A program made the position numbers and the translations under genes. DNA of 38,632 bases from a virus: positions 1-38,632 of IMG/VR virus record IMGVR_UViG_3300009838_000011; one strand, 5' to 3'. Below are positions 13,466 through 30,135 of this stretch, in pieces (position 1 is the stretch's first letter; each line of letters starts with the position of its first letter). Below the pieces are notes generated by a model, which had not been told where the DNA came from, did not search any database, and was given only the letters and a program-made list of their open reading frames with translations.

Positions 13466-13480
13466 AATTTTAATTAATAA

Positions 13481-13729: not shown

Positions 13730-13730
13730 T

Positions 13731-14101: not shown

Positions 14102-14616
14102 ACCCCAACCTCCACCGGTAAACTAATAACTTTCTTTTTTCTCTCAATCTTCTTAAAATCACTTAAAGGAATAATTGCCACCTTCTTTCCGGATGGATTT
14201 ACCCAAATAGAGTTATATTCATTTCCTAGCCTTAGCGCTTCACTAGTATTAATCCGGTAATAAACCTTTTTATTATTCCCAATAAAAACCCGATAGTTCT
14301 CACACGATTCCAAAGCAGCCACCGCCAAACCTAATACCAATGTTTGCTTCCCTTCTTCAAATTGATTCATCTTAGAATAAAAAGGATGATTAACTGTATG
14401 GATTCTAGTTTTTCCCTTAGTTGTTTTAGTCATTGATAACTTAGGAATAGAATTAATCAAATCTAATAATTGCTCATTATTCATTCCGGTTATATTAAAG
14501 TAATAGCCTCTATCCTCTAATACCTTAAAATCAGTTCCTTGTTGCTGGTTACAAGCCAACATCCAATCAAACTTACTTTTAGTTATTTCTTTGTTTCTTA
14601 TATCTTTTAAGTTCAT
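14098..14616 (-). CDS. Hypothetical protein
   Basis: 172-aa ORF with GAGGAAA SD. Confidence 0.65.
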   Translation of the reverse strand: MNLKDIRNKEITKSKFDWMLACNQQQGTDFKVLEDRGYYFNITGMNNEQLLDLINSIPKLSMTKTTKGKTRIHTVNHPFYSKMNQFEEGKQTLVLGLAVAALESCENYRVFIGNNKKVYYRINTSEALRLGNEYNSIWVNPSGKKVAIIPLSDFKKIERKKKVISLPVEVGV

Positions 14617-14667
14617 AATTGTTTCCTCATTCGGTCCTAGTGAGTTCTAGGACCTATCAAGAGCCAA

Positions 14668-15363
14668 TTACTCATCATCAATGCTGTCTCTATCCAATGT
14701 ACCGGAATACTCATTTAAAACTGTTTTCATTGTCTCTAAATCCTCTTCATTAAATCCTTCATCTTCCACTTGGAAATCCATTACCCAATACTTCACCATC
14801 TGATCTTGACCATTAATATTCTTTTTAGTCTCCACCTTAGTTGTATTAATCACAATTGGATATTTCCAAATAGCATCAATCTTTCTTTGGTTTAAAGTGT
14901 TCATCATTCGACCAAAGTTAGAAAAAGAAGCCACACTAATATTCATTAAGAATGGCGACATAGTTTCCAAATTAACTCCTAAAATACCCAATGAGACATT
15001 TCTTTTACCTTGATATTCTTTAACTATTCTTTTAGCTCGAACAATACCACACCTCAACTCATCTACCGCTGTGCCAGTATCACCTTGATAGAATTGACCC
15101 GGATCAGCATCTTCTCCATCCTCACTTGTTTTAATATTAGTCGAACCCGGCTGGACCAACTTATAAAATGGTAGGGGAATAATATCGGTAGTTACCTCTT
15201 CCAACCCCTGAATTGAAGAATAATGTTTAACTGGAGTTAATTGAGTATGATGTTCCACTGTTGCTGGAGCAAATATCTCTTCGGCTGTTTCTGCTTGTTT
15301 ATCAGCCGCAATTTTATCTCTCACTTCTCTTGCTTTATCTATACCTGTTTTTTCTTCTGACAT
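14668..15363 (-). CDS. Hypothetical early protein with an acidic C-terminal tail (possible DNA-binding/SSB-like role, unverified)
   Basis: 231-aa ORF ending ...LDRDSIDDE. It is the largest early gene. No motif recognised. Confidence 0.55.
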   Translation of the reverse strand: MSEEKTGIDKAREVRDKIAADKQAETAEEIFAPATVEHHTQLTPVKHYSSIQGLEEVTTDIIPLPFYKLVQPGSTNIKTSEDGEDADPGQFYQGDTGTAVDELRCGIVRAKRIVKEYQGKRNVSLGILGVNLETMSPFLMNISVASFSNFGRMMNTLNQRKIDAIWKYPIVINTTKVETKKNINGQDQMVKYWVMDFQVEDEGFNEEDLETMKTVLNEYSGTLDRDSIDDE

Positions 15364-15378
15364 ATTTTTTTAAATAAA

Positions 15379-15567
15379 TTAATAATTAATAAAATTAACC
15401 ATAATCATTACTCCCCAATAAAATCCGATTGAAAAGAAACCTACCAAAGCACTTGCCCACTTCTTATTCTTCTTTCTCTTATAAATCAAATTAAATGCCA
15501 CCATCATCATTACCCAGCCTATGAATGGCGACATTAACATCATAGCTGCTATTAATACAAAAATCAT
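15379..15567 (-). CDS. Two-TM membrane mini-protein
   Basis: 62-aa ORF with two hydrophobic helices flanking KRKKNKK. Confidence 0.6.
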   Translation of the reverse strand: MIFVLIAAMMLMSPFIGWVMMMVAFNLIYKRKKNKKWASALVGFFSIGFYWGVMIMVNFINY

Positions 15568-15655
15568 ATAAGGTTTTTCCTTTAATGAATTAATAATTAT
15601 TTACCTGCTTAGAAGAAAATAGTAATTAACCTTAAAACTAACTACCATATTCTCT

Positions 15656-15738
15656 TCCAAGCCGGTAAGACTTGGATTTAGGCTGGTGAGCCATATCTCA
15701 CCATATCGAGTATTCCCGGAGCTATTGGTTTGCCTCCG
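15656..15738 (-). promoter_or_regulatory. Three consecutive stem-loops in the ~270-nt leader of ORF 15379-15567
   Basis: tccaag/cttgga (15656-15676), tggtgag/ctcacca (15684-15703) and cggag/ctccg (15717-15738). Confidence 0.4.
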
Positions 15739-15782
15739 ACACCTAAATTTTTAAAGTTCTCGTATTCCTCTTGCTTTGATAC

Positions 15783-15813
15783 TCATATATTATCATCATA
15801 TATTATCATCATA
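15783..15813 (-). repeat. Tandem 13-mer x2.4 (tcatatattatca); on the minus strand each unit carries an extended -10-like TGATAATAT
   Basis: Read directly at 15783-15795, 15796-15808 and partial 15809-15813. Confidence 0.8.
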
Positions 15814-15841
15814 CAAGATATCAAAATGGGTCAAATTAAAA

Positions 15842-15955
15842 TTACTTTTTCCGCTCAAATAAACCTCGCCTATGAATCCAATCAAAAAGATGTTTCCAAC
15901 ACCACCCAATACCCTCTACCGCTTCATTTAAACAACCATCAATTTTACATTTCAT
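15842..15955 (-). CDS. Cys/His mini-protein (37 aa, below the ORF-track cutoff)
   Basis: Hand translation gives MKCKIDGCLNEAVEGIGWCWKHLFDWIHRRGLFERKK*. The C-x4-C...C-x2-H layout (with a GC pair) resembles small zinc-binding modules seen next to phage HNH proteins. The ATG directly follows TTATAAT. Confidence 0.45.
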   Translation of the reverse strand: MKCKIDGCLNEAVEGIGWCWKHLFDWIHRRGLFERKK

Positions 15956-15957
15956 AT

Positions 15958-15971
15958 TATAATTAATTATT
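15958..15971 (+). promoter_or_regulatory. TATAATTAATTATT box directly upstream of the plus-strand tRNA (candidate -10 for the tRNA)
   Basis: The plus-strand TATAAT at 15958-15963 lies 8 nt before tRNA position 1. The box is near-palindromic and so reads TATAAT-like on both strands. Confidence 0.35.
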
Positions 15972-16043
15972 GCCTCTTTAGTACAACGGCTAGTACAGTA
16001 GTTTTGTAAACTTCTAATATCTGTTCAATTCAGGTAAGAGGCT
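15972..16043 (+). tRNA. tRNA-Thr (anticodon UGU), 72 nt, no encoded CCA
   Basis: Hand-folded cloverleaf: GCCTCTT-TA-GTAC-AACGGCTA-GTAC-A-GTAGT-TTTGTAA-ACTTC-TAAT-ATCTG-TTCAATT-CAGGT-AAGAGGC-T. U8, A14, GG in the D loop, A21, U33, A37, G53-C61 and TTCAA are all present, with one T.T mismatch in the anticodon stem. The reverse orientation lacks a T loop. Confidence 0.8.
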
Positions 16044-16225
16044 CAATCCTTAATCTCCTTTATTGTCTTTAAAGCCTTAATTGCTAATTTAACCGCACCA
16101 TCATCCGAATTATGTTTTATCTTTGATCCATCATCACAAATATAAAATCCCGTCTCTAAAACCCGATTAACAACTGTTCTAGTATAAATTGGTTTTCCAT
16201 TTATTAAAATTGATACTGTTAGCAT
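16043..16225 (-). CDS. Hypothetical protein
   Basis: 60-aa ORF. Its stop codon overlaps the tRNA discriminator base by 1 nt (convergent). Confidence 0.55.
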   Translation of the reverse strand: MLTVSILINGKPIYTRTVVNRVLETGFYICDDGSKIKHNSDDGAVKLAIKALKTIKEIKD

Positions 16226-16226
16226 A

Positions 16227-16505
16227 TTAAGGAAAAACTTGATAACTATCTAAACTATAAATTCCCGGACCAATTTGACCGGCTTTGAAAGCAATTTTAG
16301 CTGCTTCACTTCTATTAACAAACCTTCCGTTATTAGTTACAAATCCTTGTTCGGTTTCATCCAACATAATTTTAAAATCTTCATATATCTTTTCAGCAAT
16401 TAAAGCGTGTCTTTTACCAGTAAAAACTCTTTCTTTATATTTTAAGGCAGCAAACTCAATTTTTTCTTCCGCCGCCGATTTTTTTTCTTTTTTCCCCTCT
16501 TTCAT
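16227..16505 (-). CDS. Hypothetical protein
   Basis: 92-aa ORF (...GKRHALIAEKI...QGFVTNNGRFVNRSEAAKIAFKAGQI...). The pattern recurs in phage hypothetical proteins; function unknown. Confidence 0.6.
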   Translation of the reverse strand: MKEGKKEKKSAAEEKIEFAALKYKERVFTGKRHALIAEKIYEDFKIMLDETEQGFVTNNGRFVNRSEAAKIAFKAGQIGPGIYSLDSYQVFP

Positions 16506-16614
16506 AAATTCTTACCAATTTCCTACAAATTGGCTTCTTACTAATTTCTAATAATTTAATTCTATACTTATTTAAATTAATAATTAAATAATCATTCCGG
16601 TATGTTGATATTCT

Positions 16615-16840
16615 CCCCCCTACCCCCAATAAAAAATTGAAGGCGAGGTGGAGTATAACAACTTTCCGACATTCCGTATAAGTTGATAGCTATTATTCGC
16701 TTAGCTACAAGCCACTCCCCGAATCCTGTCTTTACCAACTCTATTAACCTTAATAATAGAGTTGTGCCGATCTGCCCGGTCTTATACTGCTAGATTCGCT
16801 TCGCAGTTTAATTGCCGCAAAAATCTCCGGCAATGTCAAA
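16615..16840 (-). ncRNA. Structured non-coding island (candidate ncRNA or replication origin)
   Basis: No credible ORF. The region is GC-enriched relative to its surroundings. It holds a perfect 11-bp hairpin (16736-16764), a 7-bp hairpin (16811-16834), a three-way junction (16650-16718) and a G5-TA-G6 run on the minus strand (16615-16627). A ~60-nt almost pure A/T tract (about 16530-16600) lies next to it. Confidence 0.4.
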
Positions 16841-16879
16841 TACCAATAAAAACTATTCTTAGATACTCCTATAAGTTTC

Positions 16880-17080
16880 CTAAGAATTCATGTTTGGTAT
16901 AACTGATAAATCAGTTTTAAGTGGAAGTAATATCACGCCTTTGTGCTGTTCTATAAATGGAATTCCGTTTTTAATTGTTTTCTTTTCAAAGCTAATAGGT
17001 TGATTATTGGACCAGGAGAAACCGCACTTAATAGCGGTTTCTCCTTGACTTCGGGTTTTGTCTGGTGTTAGACTTTTCAT
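16880..17080 (-). CDS. Doubtful ORF (66 aa)
   Basis: No SD or box at the start. It contains a perfect 11-bp hairpin (17015-17044) and lies inside the non-coding island, between a terminator and the structured region. Confidence 0.25.
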   Translation of the reverse strand: MKSLTPDKTRSQGETAIKCGFSWSNNQPISFEKKTIKNGIPFIEQHKGVILLPLKTDLSVIPNMNS

Positions 17081-17091
17081 AGTTTTATGTG

Positions 17092-17137
17092 GTAATAAAA
17101 CAATACCCCTTCATGCCTTTTGGTGTCAAGGGGTATT
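17092..17137 (-). terminator. Rho-independent terminator after the HNH-like gene
   Basis: The minus strand reads AAUACCCCUU-(16-nt loop)-AAGGGGUAUU followed by GUUUUAUU. Confidence 0.6.
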
Positions 17138-17155
17138 TTAATCTTTAAGTTCAAC

Positions 17156-17533
17156 TTACTTTTTATGGTGTTTCTTTTTTTTCTTTTCTTTACTTCTCTC
17201 AATTTTTCGAATAATAATCTCTTTTGGTCCTTTAAAACAATCAGAAGGCATTTGATCGGCAGTAACTAGCTCTTTAGTGTCCGGATGTAAAAACAAACCA
17301 CTATCAATCGCTAGTCGATCATATTTCTCATGAACATCCTCTACTGGTTGCCCATAAACAGAACAAGCATTGTAACCGGCTAACATCATACAATTATGGG
17401 GATTATTACTACCACCTCGACATTGTGGCATACAGTGGTGTCCTTCTAGTACATCAACCTCTACATCTAATAGGTTACATCGATGACTACATTCTTCTTT
17501 TTTAACTCTTAATACTTCCTTAGAAAACGCCAT
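17156..17533 (-). CDS. HNH-like endonuclease
   Basis: 125-aa ORF with C-x3-C, then ...LEGHHCMPQCRGGSNNPHNCMMLAG...VH (an H-N-H-like arrangement), and a poly-Lys C-terminus. Confidence 0.5.
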   Translation of the reverse strand: MAFSKEVLRVKKEECSHRCNLLDVEVDVLEGHHCMPQCRGGSNNPHNCMMLAGYNACSVYGQPVEDVHEKYDRLAIDSGLFLHPDTKELVTADQMPSDCFKGPKEIIIRKIERSKEKKKKKHHKK

Positions 17534-18304: not shown

Positions 18305-19000
18305 TTATAAGGTGGAAATAATTGATATTTGCTTTAATTTGCTTTTTAAAGCCTCGCACTCCCTTTCCTTGTCTGCTAACTTGGTCTGGGTTTCTATTAA
18401 CTCCTTATTGTCTGGTACAACTGGTCCTTGTGGAGCTTTCCATTCAATACCTAAATAACTAACAACCCCCCTAGCTACACCTTTAGCAAGGTTATATAAG
18501 CCATCTTCTGATGATAATACCTTCCTATCCTCGTCTGTATTAATAAATCCACACTCCATAAGACAAGCTAATGGTTTTGTATCATGAATAAATCCCAATC
18601 GACCCCAAATATTAGCTGTTTTTTCATCCTTTACTCCTCTTAATTTTGACATTCCGGATTCAACTGCCATAGCATCTAAAAGAAATGAAGCAAACTTTTT
18701 ACTCTCTTCACTATTACGATAATACCAACCTTCCAAACCAACACCAGTGTTAGGCTTTGATGAAGAATTGATATGAATTTCGGAGCAAATATCAATATTA
18801 TCAGCTCGATCATTTATCCATTTAATTGTTTGAGTTAGGCTTAAATCAGATGGAGGATTCAGTACTCCGACACCATGCGCCCTTATAATTTGACTGGCAT
18901 AAGCAACAATCTTTTCAACTAAATCTCTTTCAACTAATCCGTTATAAACAGCACCCGGATCAGTGTTGGAATGTCCAGCAGATAAAGCGATTGTTTTCAT
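18305..19000 (-). CDS. N-acetylmuramoyl-L-alanine amidase endolysin (Amidase_3 family)
   Basis: 231-aa ORF with SAGHSNTDPGAV, ...CSEIHINS... and ...LMECGFINTDEDR..., the zinc-amidase signature strings. The C-terminal ~40 aa are coiled-coil-like, not a recognisable wall-binding domain. Confidence 0.85.
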   Translation of the reverse strand: MKTIALSAGHSNTDPGAVYNGLVERDLVEKIVAYASQIIRAHGVGVLNPPSDLSLTQTIKWINDRADNIDICSEIHINSSSKPNTGVGLEGWYYRNSEESKKFASFLLDAMAVESGMSKLRGVKDEKTANIWGRLGFIHDTKPLACLMECGFINTDEDRKVLSSEDGLYNLAKGVARGVVSYLGIEWKAPQGPVVPDNKELIETQTKLADKERECEALKSKLKQISIISTL

Positions 19001-19014: not shown

Positions 19015-22000
19015 CTATTTTCCTAACTGTTTCTTTCTTTTGTTAGATAACCACTCATTCGGAGCGGCTACCCAAGCATCCCAATTACCATTCAAGTCAT
19101 AAAGAATCTTTGCCATCTTAATATTATTTATTGGTTCAAGCATTTTATCCCATAGAGCAGTCGCCATTTCAGGGGTAATATCAGCATAGTTTTTGTAGCT
19201 TTCATCAATAATTCCAGCATCAATCATCATTTGTCTTTCAACCTTACCACCCAATAATCCATCCGGACCAAGAAGGCGGCTATTGTTGATTCTAAATAAT
19301 CCTCGATCAGTTGAGTTTTCATTTTCTCCACTAAATTTATTTTTAAATGTTTTGACTGGCGCAGTATCACTCCATAAACCAGTTTTAGGGTCAATTTTAT
19401 TTTCAACATCAATTTCCTTACCGGCAAGTAGTTGAGTATTTTCTCCCCTGATAACACCATCACTATCGGTCCTCTTTAATATCTTTGTGGCTTCTACCCA
19501 CTTATCACCAAAGACACTCTTGATATCGTCATTGTAAGGGGTTTCAGTAGCCTTTGGACTAGTAATAGTTGGCGCTGGTTCGGTTTCTCCCTCGCCAATA
19601 TTTTCTACTTCTTTAGTTGGAGTTGGAGTAACCATTTTTTCTTTTTTCTCTTTTTCCAGTATTCCTCTAACTACTTTCTCTTCACCCAAATCAAAACCCA
19701 ATATTCTTTTTTCTACCTTATTACCAATATTTTGATAATACCAATCAGGGTTTTCTTCTCTTAAAGCTAACATGGTTTGATAATATTCTCTCTTTTGATC
19801 ACTAGTTAATTTATCTTCAATTATACCTTCAATCGGATTCTCATACTTTTGAACTCCGGGTATTAATTTAGACATATTACCTAAAAACTTTTCCCATCCG
19901 CTTCGAGTATCTTTGGACCATACCAACTGTTTGTTACTGCCTTCAATCCCCTCCGCAGCAAAAGCTGGTTTAACTAATTTAAAATCAAAGTTAAGTAGTT
20001 TTTTCTTTTCTTCATAACCACTTTTTTTATCCAATACCTTTAATTCATCCACTACTTCCTGACTAATGATTTTATATTTCAAAGCATCATTAACAAGAGC
20101 TTTAAAATCATCAGTTCTCATCGCCTTTTGGAATTGTTGAAGGTAGTCTAGTTTTTCCGCATTAAGATTAGAATAAATCAATTTATCCATATAAGGTGAT
20201 TCACCCTTTTCTCTTTGAATAGTAAATTTCTTTGCCAATGCCTTACCTTCAGTGATTAAATCTTTATCAGTCGGTAATTCACCGCCAAAATATTCTTTTA
20301 CCATTTCGGTTCTTAATTTACCAAGTTCTTGTTCATCATTAATTCCTCGACTTAATTTGACATACTTATCAACTATTTCTCTTTTTTTAATAGATTTTCT
20401 GGCTGCTTCTTGATCGGCGTTAGAAGTAAATTGCTCTTGTAATCCATAACTACTGGTTTGAAACATTCGATTAATAACCGGAATTGATTGTAAAGTTACT
20501 TCGGTAGTTGATCGGCTGCCAAAATCATAAGTTTTAAAATTACCTAAACCAACAGTATTAAGTGAGTATTGGACCATTTTACCCAATCGAATCATCCCTC
20601 CAGCTTTCCAAGAAGTCTCATCAATAGCTAGTCTCCCCCGATAACTGTCATAAGGATTTCTACCTTGTAGGTAGCCTAACCAATCACCAACAGCGGTAAA
20701 TAGTGGGGTAGGGGAGGGGATATACCCAGCACCCAAAGCTCCAATTTGCTCTGGTTTAACTATCTTGCCCTGAACCATACTACTAAAAGTTTTCCAAACA
20801 ATCGCACTAACAAATCTCTCTGTTTCATCTTGGGGAATACGCATATAAACCGCCTTTCCATTTTCATCAAATCCCACTGGTACAGTAATATAATTGGTTT
20901 TGTCATATTCAGTTTGGCTTTGGAAATTCTTTTTAACCCATTCACCAAATAGACCACTCAATCCCATTACCATTAATAATTTTGGTAATACTCCCACTAT
21001 AAAGGTTCTCATCCAATAACCGGAAGCAGTCTTTGGGTCGGTAGCCAATTCCACACTAGCCCTAGTTGCCTGAATCATCACATTGGAAAAGACAAAAATA
21101 TCATTATCCATCTGTTTATAAGTACCGCCTTCAGTATAGTTTGGCGTACCGACATAATTTCGGGTAATAAAGCCTAATTTCTTTCCATCATCAATTCTTT
21201 TCTTAGCAATTTGATAACCGGATATTTTTGAAGTGGCTTCAAAAGTACCACCGGCATATTTAATAGCTTCTAAAATCTTTCCAAAACTATTATTAAATAA
21301 TTTTCGAACTGCTCCTATTTTCTCTTCTTTACCTAATATTTTGTGTTGTCGAAGCAAAAAGGCAATTGAACTATCATTATTGGCATGAGGGTCATATTGC
21401 GACCATTGAGTAGTAATAGCTTTATTAGACAACATTTCTTTTATCAATTCTGTCTTTTTACCCGCCGCAAATTTAGCACCTTCGGGGATAGACTTAATAT
21501 AAGTGGTAAGCATTTCTCCAATAGTTACTCTTTTCTTGCCCGGAGCAAACTTATTTAAAACTGAACCTAGTGAAATATAGGTACGCTTGGTATCTCTAAT
21601 GATATTGGAATAAAAACCCCATGATAAATTGTAGGTAGTAACCAATGGTTTAAATATCTTATTAAATACCCTAGCAATCCCCACTAATTGATGGACCTCA
21701 TCAGCGGTCATATTCTCATTTTCAAACATGGATTTAATATAAGGATCGACATTATAGCCAACTCTTCGACCATCCTTCATCATTTCCAAGACTTCCATAT
21801 TATCTTCTCTCTTAAAGCGGATAACAGTACCTTTATTGGTTCTAATTGCCTTTGCTTCCTTTACATCATCAGGGAAATATTGTTGTAATTCACCTAGAGC
21901 CACTTGTTTAGCTTCCTGTATATTATTCCATTCAATTAAAGCCACTGTTTTTAAGACTGATGAAGTAAATGGGTTCTCAATTCTTTTTAAAGTACCCACC

Positions 22001-25000
22001 TGTTTTTTAATTCCGGCATCAATATAATTTTTATGGATATAATCAACCACACTAAAAGTAGCGTAAGTATCTTTATTTGGCGCTATCTTCTCTTCAAAAA
22101 CTTGTTTATTGATATTGCCATTTTTAACTGCTCTCTCATTTTCAGAAAAAATCAATTCATGAAATCTTTTTTTAACTTGTTCAAATACTTTAATCTGTTC
22201 TTCGGTTAAATTCCTTTGTTTGTAATACTGATTTAAAACCACTTCAGGTATATTGCCGATTAAACCACCCGGATTAGCCAAATTGATTCTGTCTCCTAGA
22301 GCTTCTCTTTCCAATTTTAGGACCACACCCAAATCATCTTCGCTTAAACCAATCTTTTCTAATGGGTCGGTAATTTCAGTAGTGATTCGGTCCAAAAAGA
22401 TAGCCTGATCGTTTCGCCTCATATTCATTATTTCCAAAGCCTCTCTAACTTTTTGTTTACTGGATTCAACTACCCCAATATCTACCTTTGCCAGTTTCCT
22501 ATAAATTGGGTCAAATTTAGTAACATGGTTTCTTATTAATCTATCAATAAATGGTTTTCTTGGTTTTTCGGTTTGTTCAATCTCTTCTCTCTTCTTTCTT
22601 GCTTCTTTAAACCCTTCATAGATTTCTTCAAGTCGTTTATTATTTACTTCTTCTTCGCCCTTATCAAGCATTTCTAGGGTATCAAAATAAACCTTTTCTA
22701 ATTCCGGTTTATTGTTTAAGTATTCAAAGAATCCATCATAAAACTTAGGAGCTACTTTTTGAAGTAAGCCCGGATCATTTAAAAGAACTGATACCGCATC
22801 AGCGTAAAGCTCTTTGGCACTGTATCTATATTTAGTAAAGTTTTCATTAACAGTTTCATCAAATGGTTTCCAAAGCTGGGTAAGATTTTTTAGTTCATTT
22901 TTAATCTCTCTATTATTCAAATCAGCATACTTGCCTTCCATAAATTTACTTAAAGAAGCAATATGGCCAATTAAATTACCTCTAGTTGTAAAACCATCAG
23001 GAATAAAGTCGGCAATATGACCAATCTCATGAGCCAAAACTTTACCAGCTACCACTGGATCATCAAAGATTCTGGGATTAAGTTTAATCATGCCTTTACC
23101 CTTCTCATACATTCGACCCAAAGCAGTTTTAAAAGCCTTTAGAGTTGGCACATCTCCAGTTAATTCCCGAACTAGTCTCACCATTTCCGGGAATTGGATA
23201 GCCCTAATATGGTTTAAAACCACTCCAGCGGATTCTAAATCAGCATAACCACCAATATCAGCATTACCGCTTGGCGCTTTATATTTACTAACATCATTAT
23301 CTTTAATCTGTTTTAACTCAATTTCCCTTAATAATTGCTCTTTTTTAGTAGCTATCTGCTCTTCACTTAATTCATTTAAGTCTTTGGTTTTATCAACAAA
23401 CTCGCTGACATGATCAGCGATAGACTTTCTATTGGCAATCATCTCATCATATTGGCGTTGAAACTTAGCTAATCTGTCTTTATAAGTTTCAGTAATTTTG
23501 CCAATATCAATATTTACCTGTTCTTTTAGAGTTTCAATTCTTTTAATCTCCGCATCAATATCGGTAATTCCCGCTTTGTCTAATTTCTCTTGAATAGAGA
23601 CTTCTTCTTTTTTGGCTTTATTAACTTCCTTTCGGTAGTTACTAATGCCTTCAGGGTCAATCGGACTACCCCATTGAGTTTTACCGGTAACAATCCTTTC
23701 AGAATTAAATTGGATTTTTTCTTTTAAGGCTTCTCTCCTTTCCTTGATTCTGTTTAAATTGCCAATATCAGTAGAAAACATAACCAGTTGATTTTGTAAT
23801 CCCGCCTTATCCATTTCAATTTCAATGGCTGCCTTATCTTCAGGGTTAGTCATTAGCGCTAGTTTCTTTTCTCTTGGGTCTAATTCACCCACATCAAATA
23901 TCTGTCCTTGATAAGAAAATAGGTCATTGATTCTGCCGCCTTTTTCTTCAAACTTATTATAAACAGTAATATCACCGGAGTTTTCCACTAGAGGATAAAT
24001 AAGAGGCGCTATGGACCGCTTGTTTCCTTGTCGCCATACCCTTCCTTCTACTTGGGCAGGTTCGGTTGGATTCCATCCTAAAGCATTATTAATGGTTACA
24101 TATCCATTATTCTGTAAATCAATTCCTTCCTTAGTTGGATCACCGCCAATTAATAGTTTAACTTTGCCATCATTAAAGTCTTGCTTAATAGCTTCCCGCT
24201 CATCATTACTGGTTGAGCCATTAATCACTGCTACTTCACTGCCTTTAAAACCTAAATGTTTCACCGCATATTCAGCCAAATGGTTATGGTATTCTACTCC
24301 ATTTGCTCCCATATAAAGGAATGTTCCATATTTTTTAGTAGATTCATTACCTTTAAGCCACTTAACTAATTCCATTGAGTATTTAAGTTTAGGAGAATTA
24401 TCAATCAACTCTTCTGGACTGACAATTTGCGGCTGGTATTCTTTAATAAAATAAGGGGAGATTGAATTAGCTACCGAATAAGTTGAAGCCTTTAAGACCG
24501 CTCCATCCTCCGGTTTGCGATTATCCGATGGTTTTAACATCTCTTGAATTTTAGTTAAGTTCTCTTCCTGTAAGGCACTCATTTGAAGAGTTGGGGTCAT
24601 TACCCTTCGCTCTGGTCTTACTAATGTTGGATCAACTTGGTAATCAACAAACTCTCTTAATATCTTTTGGAGTTGAGGTAGGTTTTTAAATGACTTCATC
24701 TTTTCTTTATTCACCCATTCACCTCTGACATTCTTTTCCATTTCGGTTTCAAAGTTGGAGAATAAAGCAAAGAAATCATTAATATTAAATATTCCAATTT
24801 TCTTTAATCTATCCCTAGCTACCAATGATAGGATGTTATAAACCTCTGTGGCGTGGTTTTCAAAGGGAGTAGCCGAAGCAAGATATACTCCTCGATTATT
24901 ATTCTTCTTTAAAATATATTGGGAAATAATAAATAGTTGTTGAGCCTGTTTTGATGGCGTACCACCAATAACATTACCAAACCTTTTAGTTTTTGATTTA

Positions 25001-28000
25001 TCAACACTACCATCAGGATTAACCGCTTCCGGTTTAGCGCCTTGAAATATCTTTCTAAAATTATGAACCTCATCAACTGAAATATGGTCAATACCTAAAT
25101 CGGTAATTTTAATATCTCCAGCTTTATATTGAGCTTTACCAACAATCTCTTGAATCTTTGACTTTTGAAGTTCCCCTTTTCTAGCTGTTTCATTTTCTGT
25201 TCCCAAAGCATCAGTTAAATCACCAATGGCGCTATTTAATTCATCCGGAGTTAAAGATAATCTTAATAAACCTTCATGAGTAAGGACCGCTATCTCTCCA
25301 TCTTTAATCCACTTGGTTTTATCTTTACCTCTCTCCTTTTCTATTTTGGTTACTTCTGGTTTAGTTAAACCGCCGAGATTGACAATAGTTTCATTAGGAA
25401 ACATTGATTTAATGGTAGTTATCCAAGTTTGAGAAAGAGTAGATTTAGGTACAATGAAAGCGGGTCTTTTGGTCCAGCCTTTTTGTTTGGCCACCATTGT
25501 AGCGGTTAAGAGGGTATGGGTTTTACCCACTCCCACTCCATAAGCCACCAAACCAACACCCTTATTGGTTAAAAAAGAAACTCCATTAGATTGAGTTGGC
25601 GATAGTTTAAAGGTCTTACCCCTAAAGAATTTCGCCATATCTTTAATTTCTGTTGGAATTTTAGAATAATCCGGATTGACATAACTATTCTTTTCTTTAT
25701 TAAATTTATCGACTATCTGATTTTGAATATCTGAATCCAAAACATTTCGAATAAAGTAATTAAACAACCTTGCCGAATCTGCTTTAATTGCTCCCATAAT
25801 GTTTTTAGTACCCGGAGAAGCCCGATAACCTAAAACATAATTGCGAATATCATAGCGATTAACTCCATAAGATAAGGCCGAATCAGTCTTATTTAAGAAA
25901 CTAATAAATTGATCAATAATTCTAGTTCCAGCTTCCTCATCTAGTTTAATTTCAGTAACATATCTATCTAGTGGGTCAAAGGTAATATCCTTTAATTCCA
26001 CTGGCTTAGGTTTAATAGCTTCCAAACCATTTAATTGTTTGTCATATTGAGCTTGTCCTAATTTAGAAATAATGGTTTCTTTATCCGCTTTAAGTTCTTC
26101 TATTTTTTGATAAACATCACCGCTAAAATAATTGACATCATGGTAATACTTTCCTTGAAAGTAGTTTAAAATCTTTTTAGCTTCGGGAATAAAATCAACA
26201 CTGCCATCAACCTTAGTATCTTTTAAGATTTTGGATTCAACCGGATCAATATTAGAAATTCCACCACTGACTGTTTGGACCGGTACTGTCTCCACCTTTA
26301 ACTTATCCGGTTTAATAACTGGAGGTAATTTACCGGTCTTGCTTTGTTTGGTTATATTTCTTTTAGTCTTTATAGAATAAGAAGGTTCTTTAATTGGCTT
26401 TGGTTTAGCGGTTTTAGTTGGCTTACTCACTTCAACTGTTTCTGTTTCTTCTACTATTGGAGATAATCTTAAAACATCATTTAAATCTCCTTTAACAAAA
26501 GTTTCCTGTTGGCCGAATCGATTTTGTCTTTGTTCTACTGTTCCAGCTACATTATCCGGATTCTTTTCAAAGTAGTTACCACTAGTCATATCAACCACTC
26601 TCTTTTGAATTTCTAGTCTATCAAGTGAGCCACCTTTTTCAGAAAGTTTGGGAGTTTTTTGAAACACCACTATATCTGTACCAATACTGGTATCAGTAAA
26701 GATTCCTTCGGGTAATCGGTAGGCTTGGATTAATTTACCGGTTTTAGCTATCTCTTCTTTAGCAAAACTGTTTTCCTTATTTAAGAAAGAAGAATTGACA
26801 ACATAAACCAATTTTCCGCCTTCCTTTAATGATTCAAGCCCTCGCTTAATAAAAAACTCTTCCCATCGATTAATCTTTGGTTCTACCCCTTTACCTTTAA
26901 GAAAAGAGGCTCTTTCACCAAAGGGAGGATTACCCACCACTAAATCATAATTGGCTTTAGGTTCATGAGTTTCAAAATTACCATCATTACCAAATTCTTC
27001 TCCATTACCAATCTTAATATTAACTTCCGGATATAATAATTTAGCGATTGTTCCTGATACCTTTTGATATTCATAAGCATCCCATTTAATAAAAGATGGG
27101 TCATAAATCAAATTACCAGTACCGGCACTTGGCTCTAAAATAGATTTAGCGTTTGGTTCTAACATCCTTGCTATCTGCCATACCTTATCAACTACTTCCG
27201 GTGGAGTATAGTATTCCGATAATAAACCTTTACCACTTGCTCCAGTTTCAGCCTTACCACCAGCACCACTAAATAAAGCTAATTTATCTAATTCTTCTTG
27301 GGTATAATCTTTTCGATCAGTGGAAAATTCATGACCCATTAATATTAATTCGGCTTCATTATTGGCTTCGGCTCTAGTTACTTTTCCGCCAATTGTTCTT
27401 GTTCGCTTAGGTCCATTTCCAGATTCACTAATGCTTGTTGTCTCGTCATGGAGCGATCTTTCATCAACTTCTGGATTGCGTTCTCTATCTGTTGGCTGTC
27501 GTACTTCACCAGTGTCGGGAACTCTTGTGGGTTGAATGGTTGTGGTTTCATCTACTGGTATTATACCTTTTTCTGCCAATCTCATCAAATCCGAGACTAT
27601 ATTTCTTTGCCATTCAACTTCATTACTGATTTTATCCATTTCCTCTTTTACCCAATTAGGGAATAAACCCATCTTAACACCAGCTTTTTCACTCTCATTT
27701 AATCTACCCCAAATACCATCCGCAGTAACCGATGTTGGATTCTCATTGGTAATTGGTTCAATTGTTTCCGGTTTAGTGGCTTCATAACCGCCTTCCTTTT
27801 TGGGTATTAAATCAAATTTTTTAACAGTTACTTTTGTTTTTTTAGTTTCTTTAGGTTTGTACTTATTAATAAACTCCTCTTCCATTCGGGCTTGTCTTGA
27901 TATAATTTCATCTCTTTTACCTTCTAAACCTGCCCGATTTTCTTTATTGGCTTCTTTAATCTGTTTATTTAATTCTTGGACCTGATTTTCCATCTCTCCA

Positions 28001-30135
28001 TAATCCTCAGCATAATTATCAATCCAATCTTCTTCGGCTTTAGCTTGAACATCAGCGGGTAACTCTTCAATGTTTGGCTGTTCTGCTGTTTCAGAAACGC
28101 TAGGACCACTAATTTTATTAACATCAGATATTTGTTTTGATCCACCATAAGTACCCGGAGTAATATATTGAACTGAATAACCACCTTCATAAGCTGGTGC
28201 GTTCTTCTCATCTGTTATTCCGACAACATAAGCCTTACTATTACCAAACTTTTCATCAACTATCTCAACAATGTCTCCAATCTTTATTCCTTTAGGATTC
28301 TCGGCTTCATTAATTTCATCTTCCTCTATATTCTCAATTCTTTCCTTCATCTGTTCGGTCCATTGATCGATATTAATAATACTGTCCTTTGATGGTTTAG
28401 TGTTTTCTAAAATATATTTATAGATTTCACTAACTTTTTTATTATTATCAGCATTTTCACTTAATTTTATTGGTGGCAACTCCTGATCTTTTTTTATAAC
28501 CTCTTCTGATACCACCTCTTCTTTTTTCATTGTTTCTAGGACCTTTGGTGTTGTCTCTTCTTTTTTTTCCGTAACCTTTGGCTCTTTCTTTTCTTCTTCT
28601 TGAACATTACCACCTTGATTTTCCATTTTTGGAGGTTGAACATCCATCGGTTTTACCACTTCACCATCTTCTTTGGTTTTTTCAGTTATAACTTCTTTAA
28701 TAATTGTCTCGACTTGTTTTTTATTTTCCTTAATTTTTTCTTCAATGACTTCAATTTTAGCGGTTTCAATATCCGTACCCTCATTAACTTTTTTCATTAC
28801 CTCTTCTTTTACTCCGGGTACTTCTTCCACCACTCTATCTTTTATCTCTTCAACTGTTTGTTTAGCTCTCTCGATTCCGTTTTGAGTTACTTGGGCAGTC
28901 ACATCCTTACCGGTACTCGAATCAATGATTGCGCCACCAGCAGTAAAGACTAATCCCTGAATACCTCCCAATGTAAATTCCATTGCTGTTTCGTTAGAGG
29001 TTAAATCAAATGGTTTGTCTTTGGACCATAAAGAAATATTCTTTTGTGCTACTTCCTCTCCACCCTCTGAAACAAACTCACCAGTTGCTGTTCCGACTGT
29101 TTTAATTACCTTAGCAGTTCGAGATACTGTTTTACTGACATCAGAAACAGTATCAGCGGTTTTACCTAACTGACCTAATATGGGAATATATTGAAGAGTA
29201 TTTGATAAACCTAATAAAAGTAAATTTCCTTTAAATGTTTTATTGGCTGCCTTATTTGCTTCCTCTTTGGTTTTTCCTTCCTGTAACATTTCATCATAAG
29301 TCGAACCAGCCTCACTTGCTGATTCAAATGGAGTAGCCAAAGCTGAACCACCAATAGCTGCTAAAATTGTTGTACCCAACACTCCTAAACCCATAGCACC
29401 GGCAACTGCTGCTCCAGCATAGCCACCAGCAATCGCCAAAGGTAACATAGCCAAAGTAAAGACCGAACCTCTAGCCACAAGAGTAGTATAAAGTCGAGGA
29501 TTCATTAAATCTTTCCAATCAAACTCACCAATATCTTTGCTGGTATCAGGCATGAATTGTCTTAACTCTCCACCCTTTTGAACTAACTTATCTCCTAAAC
29601 CATCAGCTCCTTTCCATCTTAAAATATTACCAGCACCAGTAATTACATCACCAGCACCAGCTACCATTGAAGGTACAACCTCCATAATTTGTGGAGGAGT
29701 AATATTTCCCCATTTCTTTTTTATATCCAATGGGCTTGATGAAGTTTCCGCTCCAGTGGAAGTAGCCGATGATACTGCGGTTTTACTAGCAACATCATAA
29801 ATCTTTAAACCATATTCAGTTGGCGGGGTAATTTGAATTTTAGAAGTATCAATTGTCGGAGTTTGGACCGCCGGTTGTTGATTCAACTGTTGCTCTATTT
29901 TTTTTTTACCACTTAGGTTACTGAAAAGATCAGCCGCCTTTGTCTTTATTGTTTCAAACCATGATGGTTTTTTGGTTTCTACTGGAGTAGTAGTTGTTTT
30001 AGTTTCAGTCGGATAATACTTATCAATCAAACTTCCGCCGGTCTTTTGTTGTTGTCCAGCTATTTGTGAAGGGGTCTGTTGTAATTTTTTTTTCTTCTCC
30101 TCTTCTGTGGGGTAGAATTGGTCAATTAACGACAT
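19015..30135 (-). CDS. Giant polyvalent virion/ejection protein (3,706 aa): TM/Gly-zipper region, N6-adenine MTase, DExH/SNF2-like helicase, HExxH zincin, C-terminal lysozyme/LT-like domain
   Basis: A single uninterrupted ORF of 11,121 nt sitting between the tail genes and the lysis cassette. Domain motifs are listed as separate features below. Confidence 0.85.
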   Translation of the reverse strand: MSLIDQFYPTEEEKKKKLQQTPSQIAGQQQKTGGSLIDKYYPTETKTTTTPVETKKPSWFETIKTKAADLFSNLSGKKKIEQQLNQQPAVQTPTIDTSKIQITPPTEYGLKIYDVASKTAVSSATSTGAETSSSPLDIKKKWGNITPPQIMEVVPSMVAGAGDVITGAGNILRWKGADGLGDKLVQKGGELRQFMPDTSKDIGEFDWKDLMNPRLYTTLVARGSVFTLAMLPLAIAGGYAGAAVAGAMGLGVLGTTILAAIGGSALATPFESASEAGSTYDEMLQEGKTKEEANKAANKTFKGNLLLLGLSNTLQYIPILGQLGKTADTVSDVSKTVSRTAKVIKTVGTATGEFVSEGGEEVAQKNISLWSKDKPFDLTSNETAMEFTLGGIQGLVFTAGGAIIDSSTGKDVTAQVTQNGIERAKQTVEEIKDRVVEEVPGVKEEVMKKVNEGTDIETAKIEVIEEKIKENKKQVETIIKEVITEKTKEDGEVVKPMDVQPPKMENQGGNVQEEEKKEPKVTEKKEETTPKVLETMKKEEVVSEEVIKKDQELPPIKLSENADNNKKVSEIYKYILENTKPSKDSIINIDQWTEQMKERIENIEEDEINEAENPKGIKIGDIVEIVDEKFGNSKAYVVGITDEKNAPAYEGGYSVQYITPGTYGGSKQISDVNKISGPSVSETAEQPNIEELPADVQAKAEEDWIDNYAEDYGEMENQVQELNKQIKEANKENRAGLEGKRDEIISRQARMEEEFINKYKPKETKKTKVTVKKFDLIPKKEGGYEATKPETIEPITNENPTSVTADGIWGRLNESEKAGVKMGLFPNWVKEEMDKISNEVEWQRNIVSDLMRLAEKGIIPVDETTTIQPTRVPDTGEVRQPTDRERNPEVDERSLHDETTSISESGNGPKRTRTIGGKVTRAEANNEAELILMGHEFSTDRKDYTQEELDKLALFSGAGGKAETGASGKGLLSEYYTPPEVVDKVWQIARMLEPNAKSILEPSAGTGNLIYDPSFIKWDAYEYQKVSGTIAKLLYPEVNIKIGNGEEFGNDGNFETHEPKANYDLVVGNPPFGERASFLKGKGVEPKINRWEEFFIKRGLESLKEGGKLVYVVNSSFLNKENSFAKEEIAKTGKLIQAYRLPEGIFTDTSIGTDIVVFQKTPKLSEKGGSLDRLEIQKRVVDMTSGNYFEKNPDNVAGTVEQRQNRFGQQETFVKGDLNDVLRLSPIVEETETVEVSKPTKTAKPKPIKEPSYSIKTKRNITKQSKTGKLPPVIKPDKLKVETVPVQTVSGGISNIDPVESKILKDTKVDGSVDFIPEAKKILNYFQGKYYHDVNYFSGDVYQKIEELKADKETIISKLGQAQYDKQLNGLEAIKPKPVELKDITFDPLDRYVTEIKLDEEAGTRIIDQFISFLNKTDSALSYGVNRYDIRNYVLGYRASPGTKNIMGAIKADSARLFNYFIRNVLDSDIQNQIVDKFNKEKNSYVNPDYSKIPTEIKDMAKFFRGKTFKLSPTQSNGVSFLTNKGVGLVAYGVGVGKTHTLLTATMVAKQKGWTKRPAFIVPKSTLSQTWITTIKSMFPNETIVNLGGLTKPEVTKIEKERGKDKTKWIKDGEIAVLTHEGLLRLSLTPDELNSAIGDLTDALGTENETARKGELQKSKIQEIVGKAQYKAGDIKITDLGIDHISVDEVHNFRKIFQGAKPEAVNPDGSVDKSKTKRFGNVIGGTPSKQAQQLFIISQYILKKNNNRGVYLASATPFENHATEVYNILSLVARDRLKKIGIFNINDFFALFSNFETEMEKNVRGEWVNKEKMKSFKNLPQLQKILREFVDYQVDPTLVRPERRVMTPTLQMSALQEENLTKIQEMLKPSDNRKPEDGAVLKASTYSVANSISPYFIKEYQPQIVSPEELIDNSPKLKYSMELVKWLKGNESTKKYGTFLYMGANGVEYHNHLAEYAVKHLGFKGSEVAVINGSTSNDEREAIKQDFNDGKVKLLIGGDPTKEGIDLQNNGYVTINNALGWNPTEPAQVEGRVWRQGNKRSIAPLIYPLVENSGDITVYNKFEEKGGRINDLFSYQGQIFDVGELDPREKKLALMTNPEDKAAIEIEMDKAGLQNQLVMFSTDIGNLNRIKERREALKEKIQFNSERIVTGKTQWGSPIDPEGISNYRKEVNKAKKEEVSIQEKLDKAGITDIDAEIKRIETLKEQVNIDIGKITETYKDRLAKFQRQYDEMIANRKSIADHVSEFVDKTKDLNELSEEQIATKKEQLLREIELKQIKDNDVSKYKAPSGNADIGGYADLESAGVVLNHIRAIQFPEMVRLVRELTGDVPTLKAFKTALGRMYEKGKGMIKLNPRIFDDPVVAGKVLAHEIGHIADFIPDGFTTRGNLIGHIASLSKFMEGKYADLNNREIKNELKNLTQLWKPFDETVNENFTKYRYSAKELYADAVSVLLNDPGLLQKVAPKFYDGFFEYLNNKPELEKVYFDTLEMLDKGEEEVNNKRLEEIYEGFKEARKKREEIEQTEKPRKPFIDRLIRNHVTKFDPIYRKLAKVDIGVVESSKQKVREALEIMNMRRNDQAIFLDRITTEITDPLEKIGLSEDDLGVVLKLEREALGDRINLANPGGLIGNIPEVVLNQYYKQRNLTEEQIKVFEQVKKRFHELIFSENERAVKNGNINKQVFEEKIAPNKDTYATFSVVDYIHKNYIDAGIKKQVGTLKRIENPFTSSVLKTVALIEWNNIQEAKQVALGELQQYFPDDVKEAKAIRTNKGTVIRFKREDNMEVLEMMKDGRRVGYNVDPYIKSMFENENMTADEVHQLVGIARVFNKIFKPLVTTYNLSWGFYSNIIRDTKRTYISLGSVLNKFAPGKKRVTIGEMLTTYIKSIPEGAKFAAGKKTELIKEMLSNKAITTQWSQYDPHANNDSSIAFLLRQHKILGKEEKIGAVRKLFNNSFGKILEAIKYAGGTFEATSKISGYQIAKKRIDDGKKLGFITRNYVGTPNYTEGGTYKQMDNDIFVFSNVMIQATRASVELATDPKTASGYWMRTFIVGVLPKLLMVMGLSGLFGEWVKKNFQSQTEYDKTNYITVPVGFDENGKAVYMRIPQDETERFVSAIVWKTFSSMVQGKIVKPEQIGALGAGYIPSPTPLFTAVGDWLGYLQGRNPYDSYRGRLAIDETSWKAGGMIRLGKMVQYSLNTVGLGNFKTYDFGSRSTTEVTLQSIPVINRMFQTSSYGLQEQFTSNADQEAARKSIKKREIVDKYVKLSRGINDEQELGKLRTEMVKEYFGGELPTDKDLITEGKALAKKFTIQREKGESPYMDKLIYSNLNAEKLDYLQQFQKAMRTDDFKALVNDALKYKIISQEVVDELKVLDKKSGYEEKKKLLNFDFKLVKPAFAAEGIEGSNKQLVWSKDTRSGWEKFLGNMSKLIPGVQKYENPIEGIIEDKLTSDQKREYYQTMLALREENPDWYYQNIGNKVEKRILGFDLGEEKVVRGILEKEKKEKMVTPTPTKEVENIGEGETEPAPTITSPKATETPYNDDIKSVFGDKWVEATKILKRTDSDGVIRGENTQLLAGKEIDVENKIDPKTGLWSDTAPVKTFKNKFSGENENSTDRGLFRINNSRLLGPDGLLGGKVERQMMIDAGIIDESYKNYADITPEMATALWDKMLEPINNIKMAKILYDLNGNWDAWVAAPNEWLSNKRKKQLGK
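19018..19518 (-). other. Giant ORF domain: lysozyme / specialised lytic-transglycosylase-like C-terminus
   Basis: ...GENENSTDRGLFRINNSRLLGPDG... (D at aa 3610, nt 19306-19308). This resembles the S-x-D-x-GL(M/F)QIN motif of VirB1-type transglycosylases and C-type lysozymes. Confidence 0.55.
22696..23178 (-). other. Giant ORF domain: zincin-like metallopeptidase
   Basis: VLAHEIGHIADF; HEIGH at aa 2369-2373, nt 23017-23031. Confidence 0.6.
23896..25638 (-). other. Giant ORF domain: SF2 DExH / SNF2-like helicase
   Basis: Walker A GVGVGKTHT (K1538, nt 25522-25524); motif II DEVH (aa 1688-1691, nt 25063-25074); motif VI-like QVEGRVWRQGN (aa 2028-2038, nt 24022-24054). Confidence 0.8.
26596..27288 (-). 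other. Giant ORF domain: N6-adenine DNA methyltransferase (motif order I then IV)
   Basis: YYTPPEVV, then ILEPSAGTGNL (AdoMet motif I, aa ~1000-1009), then VVGNPPFGE (NPPF at aa 1069-1072, nt 26920-26931). Confidence 0.8.
29161..29493 (-). other. Giant ORF region: Gly/Ala-rich transmembrane (glycine-zipper) segments
   Basis: aa ~215-325: ...VFTLAMLPLAIAGGYAGAAVAGAMGLGVLGTTILAAIGGSALA...LLLLGLSNTLQYIPILGQLG. This resembles the membrane-inserting segments of tape-measure and ejection proteins. Confidence 0.55.

Follow-up and report, generated by a model that had tools for sequence, protein, structure and literature searches.

Giant virion proteins annotated as 'DarB-like antirestriction' or 'PLxRFG' proteins have been described in several podoviruses: gp75 of Bcep22, gp69 of JC1 and of BcepMigl, gp01 of VvAW1 and a 3,764-amino-acid (aa) protein of Serratia phage Parlo. 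They are the closest described counterparts of the gene which is the subject of this analysis, a minus-strand open reading frame (ORF) at positions 19015..30135 of the virus record IMGVR_UViG_3300009838_000011, encoding a protein of 3,706 aa; all 38,632 nucleotides of this record were analysed and are called the window below. In Burkholderia phage JC1, gp69 is a DarB-like protein of 4,515 aa which takes up 22% of the genome and closes the series of virion genes ahead of lysis; mass spectrometry (MS) of virions purified on CsCl detected it with 51 unique peptides, and proteins of this type are carried by all Lessieviruses (PMC9144972). The comparisons presented here make it probable that the giant protein from the window is likewise packaged in the virion, as a podovirus ejection protein of the extended T7 gp16 or IVP-D type (IVP, internal virion protein), in which a constant chassis would deliver enzymes along with the DNA.

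Two other groups of described proteins bear on this proposal. Iyer, Burroughs, Anand, de Souza and Aravind (2017) described phage polyvalent proteins, predicted to be injected, which combine a hub of zincin-like metallopeptidases (MPTases) with a methylase-SWI2/SNF2 dyad and lysozyme domains; their polyvalent metallopeptidases are zincins, and LPD38 is a domain of polyvalent proteins occurring only in phages (PMC5512222). P1 DarB is an anti-restriction factor acting in cis on the injected DNA (PMC5512222), and its packaging requires DarA, Hdf and other proteins (PMC9144972). Hardies et al. (2016) listed BcepMigl gp69 and Pseudomonas phage H66 gp60, a 'very large' protein with an S-adenosylmethionine (SAM)-methylase site, in the extended T7 IVP-D (gp16) family, the homologues of which host lysozyme and cytoplasm-destined domains, the N4 virion RNA polymerase (vRNAP) being embedded within one of them (PMC4819975). 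JC1 gp69 and BcepMigl gp69 are taken here to be orthologues, because of the accession order and because all Lessieviruses carry the protein.

The gene in the window begins with ATG and runs through a single uninterrupted frame, the translation of which contains no internal stop. Its length of 11,121 nt, approximately 29% of the approximately 38.5-kb genome, had been noted in a preliminary description made from the letters of the sequence, and the ORF listing and the translation bear this out. The ten motifs named there are all present at the residues assigned to them, and the transmembrane (TM) segments proposed in it agree with hydrophobic segments at aa 218-268 and 3044-3064. The GC content shows little variation over the whole ORF (0.32-0.385).

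Proteins of the same build recur in independent assemblies. P0168 (3,419 aa), P0169 (3,405 aa), P0170 (3,761 aa), P0228 (3,541 aa), as well as P0167 and P0171, both partial, align collinearly with the giant protein for more than 2,000 residues (32-68% identity; P0168 at 60% over aa 1224-3371), with NPPF, GxGKT, DExH and HExxH in the same order. The succession of TM cluster, methyltransferase (MTase), helicase, zincin and conserved core is common to the metagenomic giants (at least six cluster representatives). The idea that the giant protein is unique was rejected: in a word-indexed protein search no match exceeded 2,453 aa, but an exhaustive search of cluster representatives gave several collinear relatives of 3,400-3,760 aa. 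The extreme length of the protein could also suggest a chimeric assembly or, alternatively, a virion RNA polymerase hidden in the core, as in N4 and crAss-like phages; we regard this explanation, in either form, as very improbable. Collinear giants in independent assemblies and in cultured phages, together with the even composition, speak against a chimera, so that, judged from the assemblies alone, the ORF is not one. The polymerase form of the explanation is considered below, with the structure of the core.

Among cultured phages, the podovirus Vibrio phage VvAW1 offers a counterpart of this organization. Its genome of 38,682 bp devotes 28% of its length to gp01 (3,640 aa), located after a 'DNA ejection' gene, and in gp01 an MTase (882-1194), a helicase (1455-2247), HExxH (2636) and a hydrophobic helix (3313-3336) are collinear with the giant protein. 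The earlier remark that such an investment is unusual for a phage of 38.5 kb is therefore overstated, with VvAW1 as the direct precedent and Bcep22-like phages and Parlo as further ones. In JC1 gp69, a hidden Markov model (HMM) of the core matched residues 3622-4191 (E 4e-22), downstream of the HExxH of gp69 at 3465. A 2,329-aa hypothetical protein of Pelagibacter phage Baldr was the only match to the core by tblastn in a cultured phage (core HMM E 1e-210); its gene follows those of tubular tail A/B and a 606-aa protein and precedes the tail fibre, a location matching that of gp14-16 in T7.

The giant protein thus shares with the Bcep22, JC1 and VvAW1 group an MTase, an SF2 (superfamily 2) helicase, an HExxH zincin and a C-terminal region of about 1,000 aa with one hydrophobic helix, all in the same order, and its gene is likewise the last of the virion module, before lysis, with a comparable genome share (22% in JC1, 28% in VvAW1 and 29% here). 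It differs from this group in that identity in the MTase-helicase part is only 22-30% and the cores are linked by HMM only. Moreover, the soluble lytic transglycosylase (SLT) domain of JC1 gp69 is N-terminal, whereas here a divergent lysozyme-like domain would be C-terminal, and the N-terminal twin motif and early TM hairpin of this lineage are not evident in VvAW1 or JC1. A PLxRFG motif was not found in any of the four proteins tested (the giant protein, JC1 gp69, VvAW1 gp01 and the Baldr homologue).

The most constant part of the protein is its C-terminal core. A search with aa 2300-3706 yielded 71 homologous proteins, mostly of 2,000-2,450 aa and encoded on 30-45-kb contigs; conservation was counted over these and the query (72 sequences), and the full-length family alignment and the Pfam survey covered 27 homologues. 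A stretch corresponding to aa ~2285-3370 of the query (~1,085 aa) is common to 71/71 homologues and usually forms their C-terminal end. When 1.84 billion cluster representatives were searched exhaustively with the core, 2,063 clusters were matched at E ≤ 1e-3 and 1,410 of them at E ≤ 1e-30. Approximately 107 positions of the core are at least 80% conserved, and an equivalent of its hydrophobic helix occurs in many homologues, including JC1 gp69 (4170-4191) and VvAW1 gp01 (at the position given above). Outside the core, the Pfam domains differ from one homologue to another, comprising SLT, Zeta toxin, GNAT, DnaJ, Pol III beta, ParB/DdrB-ParB, RadC, ART-PolyVal, GGDEF, LPD3, PBECR3 and N6_N4 MTase. 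Alignment therefore identifies the zincin and the ~900 aa following it as the invariant scaffold of the family, with the variable predicted cargo N-terminal to it. The unassigned block of ~1,100 aa had been proposed as a site of novel effectors, and this expectation did not hold: the block is a scaffold common to the 71 homologues and the 2,063 clusters, and since it is shared by all homologues and the variable domains lie elsewhere, effectors should be sought N-terminal to it.

Within the core, H2369, E2370 and H2373 (HEIGH at aa 2369) and E2442 are invariant in 72/72 sequences. In the AlphaFold2 (AF2) model, a beta-hairpin (strands 56-59 and 65-68, in core numbering) precedes the HExxH helix (76-92), and the Glu lies on a later helix (156-169), which is a zincin-like layout; weak Pfam matches to M13, M48, SprT and Zn_peptidase_2 were found in the query or its relatives. 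Judged by these residues, the zincin recognized in the preliminary description is genuine and conserved, with the putative metal-site residues intact. Many family members have an insertion of 100-150 aa after the active-site helix of the zincin (equivalent to giant aa ~2400-2410), and in about half of the homologues BLAST alignments break at this place, which may represent a second, small cargo slot.

The core model as a whole (predicted local distance difference test, pLDDT, 77.6; predicted template modelling score, pTM, 0.67) is almost all helical, with few hairpins. No match of the core to the Protein Data Bank (PDB) was obtained by sequence profile and no significant one by fold, the best being anthrax lethal factor with a non-significant E of 0.013, and Pfam models did not detect the core in the query itself. 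In BFVD, 66 fold matches with E < 1e-3 were found; these are pieces of very large proteins of podoviruses and uncultured phages, among them Ralstonia phage Alix, Escherichia phage PTXU04 and Cellulophaga phages phi19:3 and phi46:3, with the annotations LPD, LPD38, LT_GEWL, Zeta toxin and ART-PolyVal. The Pfam model of LPD38 weakly matched 3/27 family members. Structure prediction and Foldseek, advised earlier for the unassigned block, thus revealed the mainly helical nature of the core and brought the BFVD matches, though no significant match in PDB. The same data decide about the hidden polymerase mentioned above. Such a reading could appeal to the length of the protein, to the failure to find an RNA polymerase elsewhere in the genome and to the zincin which follows the polymerase in N4 gp50. 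We rejected it, since helices make up nearly the whole of the core model, the conserved acidic residues are dispersed without forming a DxDxD-type motif, and no match to an RNA polymerase was obtained by sequence or fold.

As a separate observation, copies of the core occur in metagenome-assembled genomes (MAGs) of many phyla, including Patescibacteria, Planctomycetota, Verrucomicrobiota, Gemmatimonadota, Acidobacteriota, Bacteroidota and Desulfobacterota, and some are prophages within chromosomes of megabase size. In L009, L010, L013 and L016 the core genes lie on ~40-kb contigs in MAGs of Patescibacteria (candidate phyla radiation, CPR; Dojkabacteria, Saccharibacteria and Beckwithbacteria), and in L024 the contig was binned as a Thermoplasmatales archaeon. 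The Patescibacteria- and Thermoplasmatales-binned contigs are probably phage contigs, possibly mis-binned.

The segment N-terminal to the core, aa 917-2287, carries the enzymes. Pfam Eco57I matched its first part with 31 bits (cut-off 25.3), and in a PDB search M.TaqI aligned with aa 972-1163 (E 4e-4). The motifs YYTPPEVV (aa 975, X), EPSAGTG (aa 1001, I) and NPPF (aa 1069, IV) follow each other in the order X-I-IV, and therefore the enzyme is assigned to the gamma class of N6-adenine methyltransferases. In the second part, helicase motifs I, II and VI are intact (GVGKT at aa 1535, DEVH at aa 1688 and QVEGRVWRQGN at aa 2028, the last conforming to QxxGRxxRxG). Pfam Helicase_C scored above its cut-off (41 bits), while SNF2-rel_dom (21.9 vs 24.9 bits) and ResIII (21.8 vs 22.5 bits) both remained just under theirs; therefore, of the earlier designation as an SNF2-like helicase, SF2 is firm and the SNF2 subtype borderline. 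NCBIfam gave partial helicase matches only. The PHROG families matched were 1685 (E 6e-133), 11801 (E 7e-96) and 10089, 'DarB-like antirestriction' (E 1.2e-63), the last in three stretches. The Pfam, PHROG and PDB searches hence confirm the prediction of a TaqI/Eco57I-type N6-adenine MTase joined to an SF2 helicase, i.e. a DarB-like dyad.

A tblastn search with the MTase-helicase part matched 131 phage records, many of them annotated as DarB-like antirestriction or PLxRFG protein. The nearest stand-alone relative of the cassette is P0077, a 1,559-aa protein with its own HExxH (identity 47% by BLASTP and, over aa 917-2287, 44% by tblastn). In its contig, L058 (988-9060), the MTase-helicase, a 215-aa gene, a 761-aa gene weakly matching LPD38 and then an Amidase_2 endolysin are all separate, a hint that such modules may be fused and split repeatedly. 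The next relative, P0078 (35% identity), belongs to a conjugative element with TrwC, TrbC and VirB4-like genes.

The presence of a helicase fused to a membrane-associated ejection chassis allows for another explanation, in which a membrane-anchored SF2 translocase would mainly reel the genome in, comparably to the transcription-driven entry of T7 and N4, with methylation in passing and anti-restriction secondary. Iyer et al. indeed proposed that the dyad translocates along incoming DNA in an ATP-dependent manner (PMC5512222), the N4 vRNAP is embedded within an IVP-D homologue (PMC4819975), and neither an RNA polymerase nor a recognisable replication gene was found in the genome. On the other hand, most family members (~2,000-2,450 aa) have no helicase and bear other cargo, and therefore the chassis should be able to deliver DNA without a built-in motor; furthermore, the dyad's experimental prototype, P1 DarB, serves in anti-restriction. 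We consider this explanation rather unlikely.

It might also be supposed that the MTase-helicase works in the producer cell, methylating progeny DNA late in infection or in the capsid, and that the fusion serves merely co-expression, the enzyme being unneeded after ejection. Many phages encode orphan MTases acting on progeny DNA, the giant gene lies in a late operon, and the stand-alone homologues of the MTase-helicase adjoin LPD38-like and lysis genes. This supposition appears quite unlikely to us, as other cargoes of the chassis (Zeta toxin, ART, GGDEF and ParB nuclease) make sense only in a newly infected cell, the JC1 homologue is found in virions, and P1 DarB acts in cis on DNA which has been injected.

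The N-terminal region of the giant protein begins with two copies of a short motif, SLID[QK][FY]YPTE. When the N-termini of the relatives P0003-P0071 were inspected, a repeat with at least 6/9 identical positions was found in the first 100 aa in 36/66 full-length proteins vs 7/330 control windows. The feature is family-wide: at the start of most full-length relatives, a short motif particular to the protein is present in two to four copies, for example TIFDFSDY / QVFDFSDY, SWFDQFQRV (twice), DPDILAALG (twice) or DIFDKV (three times). The copies are alike within a protein and different between proteins, which suggests co-evolution with a partner. No occurrence of the motif was detected in any other reading frame of the genome, and for this reason the idea of an address shared with other virion proteins was rejected. 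Purely as a hypothesis, by analogy with the T4 capsid-targeting sequence, the twin motif could be a packaging or partner-binding address. Conservation of the Gly/Ala-rich hydrophobic cluster located further downstream extends to P0008 (52% identity over aa 22-543) as well as to P0168 and P0171, and the cluster is probably a membrane-inserting hairpin. The spacer and variable region which follows (aa ~440-916) matched no family, and its portion at aa ~493-854 had no BLAST match even in close giants.

At the opposite end, the C-terminal domain was modelled by AF2 with a pLDDT of 91. It also exists in the form of stand-alone proteins of ~300 aa (P0072-76) and at the ends of P0003, P0005, P0009 and P0167, and its invariant residues are found in G-E-N (E3565) and DRGLFRINN (D3610; STDRGLFRINN starts at aa 3608). 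The distance between E3565 and DRGLFRINN, 45 residues, is much longer than in hen egg-white lysozyme (HEWL) or SLT. The top PDB fold matches were all C-type lysozymes, at non-significant values (E 0.4-5, template modelling score ~0.3), and no match was obtained to Pfam or to PDB sequences. By hhalign, the domain was collinear with HEWL over residues 47-111 (STDYGILQINS... and NAWVAW; E 0.084), and with the SLT tails at the same position in P0008 and P0006 only DRGLFRINN could be aligned to DRGIAQINS (18 columns, E 0.04). Thus, of the earlier suggestion of a lysozyme-like or lytic transglycosylase (LT)-like C-terminus, the motif match and the lysozyme character of the fold matches stand, and statistical significance was not reached in five tests. 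A muralytic domain of lysozyme-like fold is no more than plausible.

The positions of all these parts, and of the neighbouring genes considered next, are collected in Table 1.

Table 1. Location of the giant gene, its predicted parts and other genes in the window
Feature	Residues (aa)	Position (nt)	Strand	Basis or remark
Whole giant ORF		19015..30135	-	ORF listing, translation, motif positions
Twin motif, copy 1 (SLIDQFYPTE)	2-11	30103..30132	-	Sequence
Twin motif, copy 2 (SLIDKYYPTE)	35-44	30004..30033	-	Sequence
Gly/Ala-rich hydrophobic cluster	~215-325	29161..29493	-	Kyte-Doolittle segments 218-268
K/E-rich low-complexity spacer and variable region, including KIGDIVEIV at aa 618	~440-916	27388..28818	-	Sequence
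MTase-helicase cargo cassette	917-2287	23275..27387	-	tblastn vs L058/P0077, 44% identity over aa 917-2287; PHROG 1685, 11801, 10089
Predicted N6-adenine DNA methyltransferase	~960-1210	26506..27258	-	Pfam, PDB, motifs
Predicted SF2 (SNF2/DExH-like) helicase	~1430-2065	23941..25848	-	Pfam, PHROG, motifs
Conserved family core: zincin and ~900-aa mainly helical domain	2285-3370	20026..23283	-	Homologue searches, AF2 model
Zincin metallopeptidase-like domain (H2369, E2370, H2373, E2442)	~2310-2480	22696..23208	-	Conservation, model
Conserved hydrophobic helix inside the core	3044-3064	20944..21006	-	Kyte-Doolittle
C-terminal extension, first part	~3383-3500	19636..19989	-	Shared with P0001, P0005, P0008
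C-terminal ~175-aa domain, possibly lysozyme/SLT-like	~3530-3706	19018..19548	-	AF2, fold and profile comparisons
Gene directly upstream of the giant gene, 452 aa		30138..31496	-	Conserved partner; no family hit
Endolysin, directly downstream of the giant gene, start of lysis cassette		18305..19000	-	PHROG 435, E 4e-33
Large terminase		9309-10655	-	Family/profile searches
Portal		6440-8473	-	Profile match to podovirus SU10 portal model
Major head protein		3817-4785	-	Family/profile searches
SU10-type adaptor		904-1632	-	Profile match
Tail-fibre-like proteins		56-700 and 37433-38536	-	Family/profile searches
Holliday-junction resolvase		11187-11570	-	Family/profile searches

The last 123 nt of the window (38510-38632) are identical to the first (1-123), and therefore we regard them as an assembly overlap and the window as a circular, complete genome of ~38,509 bp. 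All sizeable ORFs lie on the minus strand. The giant gene is the last of the virion module, directly before the endolysin and after the 452-aa gene, so that the location between virion genes and the lysis cassette, next to an ORF resembling an internal protein, is as had been noted. The 452-aa protein shows 40% identity to that of a 422-aa gene directly upstream of P0005 in L003, and proteins of similar size precede the giant homologues in JC1 (gp68, virion-associated by MS), L006 and Baldr; it may be an IVP-C-like partner. Family and profile searches recognised no tail tube, sheath, tape-measure chaperone, DNA polymerase, primase, RNA polymerase or integrase in the genome. The approximately 15 small minus-strand ORFs at 11187-17533 included nothing recognisable as a DNA polymerase, primase, replicative helicase, integrase or repressor, and the sole matches were the Holliday-junction resolvase and a weak, sub-threshold Pam3 gp34-like hit (14668-15363). 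The helicase within the giant protein is the sole helicase detected in the genome. As megablast of the giant ORF against 50,697 phage records gave zero matches, and the portal and adaptor are of podovirus type, the source is, by its sequence, an uncultured podovirus with no close cultured relative.

This gene content also bears on the possibility that the giant protein is a tape-measure protein of a long-tailed phage, with an N-terminal TM zipper, a C-terminal wall hydrolase and inserted enzymes. The TM cluster and the possible lysozyme-like end could be quoted in its favour, and so could the neighbouring ORF 36308-37369, which weakly matches a PHROG 'tape measure' family (E 3.6e-4). However, the portal and adaptor match podovirus SU10 models, no genes for a tail tube, sheath or chaperone were found, the cultured relatives (Baldr with tubular tail A/B, VvAW1 and JC1) are podoviruses, and 3,706 aa would mean a tail far beyond any known length. 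We therefore rejected this possibility as extremely improbable, on account of the podovirus-type portal and adaptor and the podovirus relatives.

A separate feature of the genome is an ORF-poor, AT-rich stretch at ~15.4-17.1 kb. It contains a tRNA-Thr gene (anticodon TGT) at 15972-16044 on the plus strand, opposite to every sizeable ORF, detected by both ARAGORN and Rfam (55.8 bits), as well as a tandem 13-mer (15783-15808) and a 12-bp hairpin (17014-17045), both of them perfect. This stretch could be a regulatory or origin region.

Comparison with the described systems allows the architecture of the giant protein to be placed more precisely. As in polyvalent proteins, several unrelated enzymatic domains are joined in one huge polypeptide in a late, virion gene context; at least two disparate activities (N6-adenine MTase, SF2 helicase and zincin) are predicted, and the protein is encoded among virion genes. 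Unlike polyvalent proteins understood as a domain network, here the zincin and ~900 aa behave as a single unit which is constant, stands at the C-terminus and is preceded by the cargo. The protein resembles T7 gp16 and IVP-D in being large, mostly helical and encoded with podovirus tail and ejection genes; T7 gp16 has an N-terminal LT domain and is devoid of a zincin. The order of an N6-adenine MTase and an SF2 helicase in one protein is that of the virion-carried P1 DarB. P1 is a myovirus, and its DarB, of ~2,255 aa, lacks an ejection-protein core, a TM hairpin and a lysozyme-like end; packaging helpers of the DarA/Hdf type were not identified in the genome in the window. Similarity to N4 gp50, an injected virion protein of ~3,500 aa, consists in the location of a cytoplasm-destined enzyme in the middle of the protein, followed by an HExxH zincin and a long C-terminal region, which in gp50 comprises ~1,000 aa needed for encapsidation. 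The cargo of gp50 is a T7-like RNA polymerase, in contrast to the MTase-helicase predicted here, and no RNA polymerase domain was matched in the giant protein in Pfam, PHROG, PDB sequence or fold searches. The core HMM did not match N4 gp50.

In the light of these comparisons, a course of events during infection may be proposed. The chassis would be composed of the N-terminal twin motif, possibly serving targeting or partner binding, the Gly/Ala-rich hairpin and the C-terminal module of ~1,085 aa. The cargo slot would lie between its N- and C-terminal parts, being filled here by the DarB-type dyad, with a small, probably muralytic domain at the C-terminus. The giant protein would be packaged in the head together with its 452-aa upstream partner and, at infection, would exit via the short tail, ahead of the DNA or with it. 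Its hydrophobic segments and helical core might help to build or anchor a trans-envelope conduit, and the C-terminal domain might help to open peptidoglycan. Upon reaching the cytoplasm, the MTase-helicase would move along the entering genome and methylate or shield it in cis, as P1 DarB does against type I systems, and the zincin may process the polyprotein into functional parts.

The identity of the domains, the pattern of their conservation, the synteny and the homology to a protein detected in virions are the observations on which this proposal is built; packaging, ejection, membrane insertion, processing and anti-restriction are predicted by homology. The reading of a virion-carried, injected polyvalent protein, put forward in the preliminary description, agrees with the MS data on JC1 gp69, with the work of Iyer et al. 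and with the IVP-D homologues, and still has the nature of an inference. Several points weigh against it. The MS results for JC1 indicate association with the virion rather than an internal location or ejection (PMC9144972). The link between the giant protein and T7 gp16 is indirect, running via JC1 and BcepMigl and via the literature, and neither T7 gp15/gp16 nor another ejection protein appeared among the top 50 PDB fold matches of the core. When the 72 core sequences were compared by hhalign with nine C-termini of N4-like vRNAPs, just 12 columns, the HExxH helix, could be aligned (E 0.19). None of the five ways of testing the lysozyme assignment of the C-terminal domain gave a statistically significant result. 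Finally, the nearest relatives of the cassette include a stand-alone phage protein and a conjugative-element protein, which indicates that it can work without the chassis.

One could go further and suppose that the core, the early hairpin and the twin motif, the last acting as a packaging or partner-binding address, constitute a modular delivery chassis used across a broad podovirus lineage (~2,000 clusters, with MAGs ranging from Patescibacteria to Acidobacteriota), and that in the giants a membrane-tethered SF2 translocase pulls the genome in while methylating it. We consider this broader picture unlikely.

Giants of the same build are already known in cultured phages. The original interpretation of the gene was largely right, and its novelty was overstated. 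Since giant DarB-like virion proteins, polyvalent proteins and enzyme-bearing IVP-D homologues have all been published, the current understanding of such proteins is unchanged. What appears modestly new is the delimitation of a constant chassis of ~1,085 aa, set apart from the cargo across ~2,000 clusters, the existence of such a core without a significant PDB fold match, and the twin motif. If the proposed function is correct, the giant protein would represent a clean and complete case of a podovirus ejection protein carrying anti-defence enzymes, in an uncultured phage of ~38.5 kb. The separation of chassis from cargo, together with the twin motif, may provide leads for the engineering of phage-delivered proteins, and the definition of the chassis should help to annotate many 'hypothetical' podovirus proteins of 2,000-4,000 aa.

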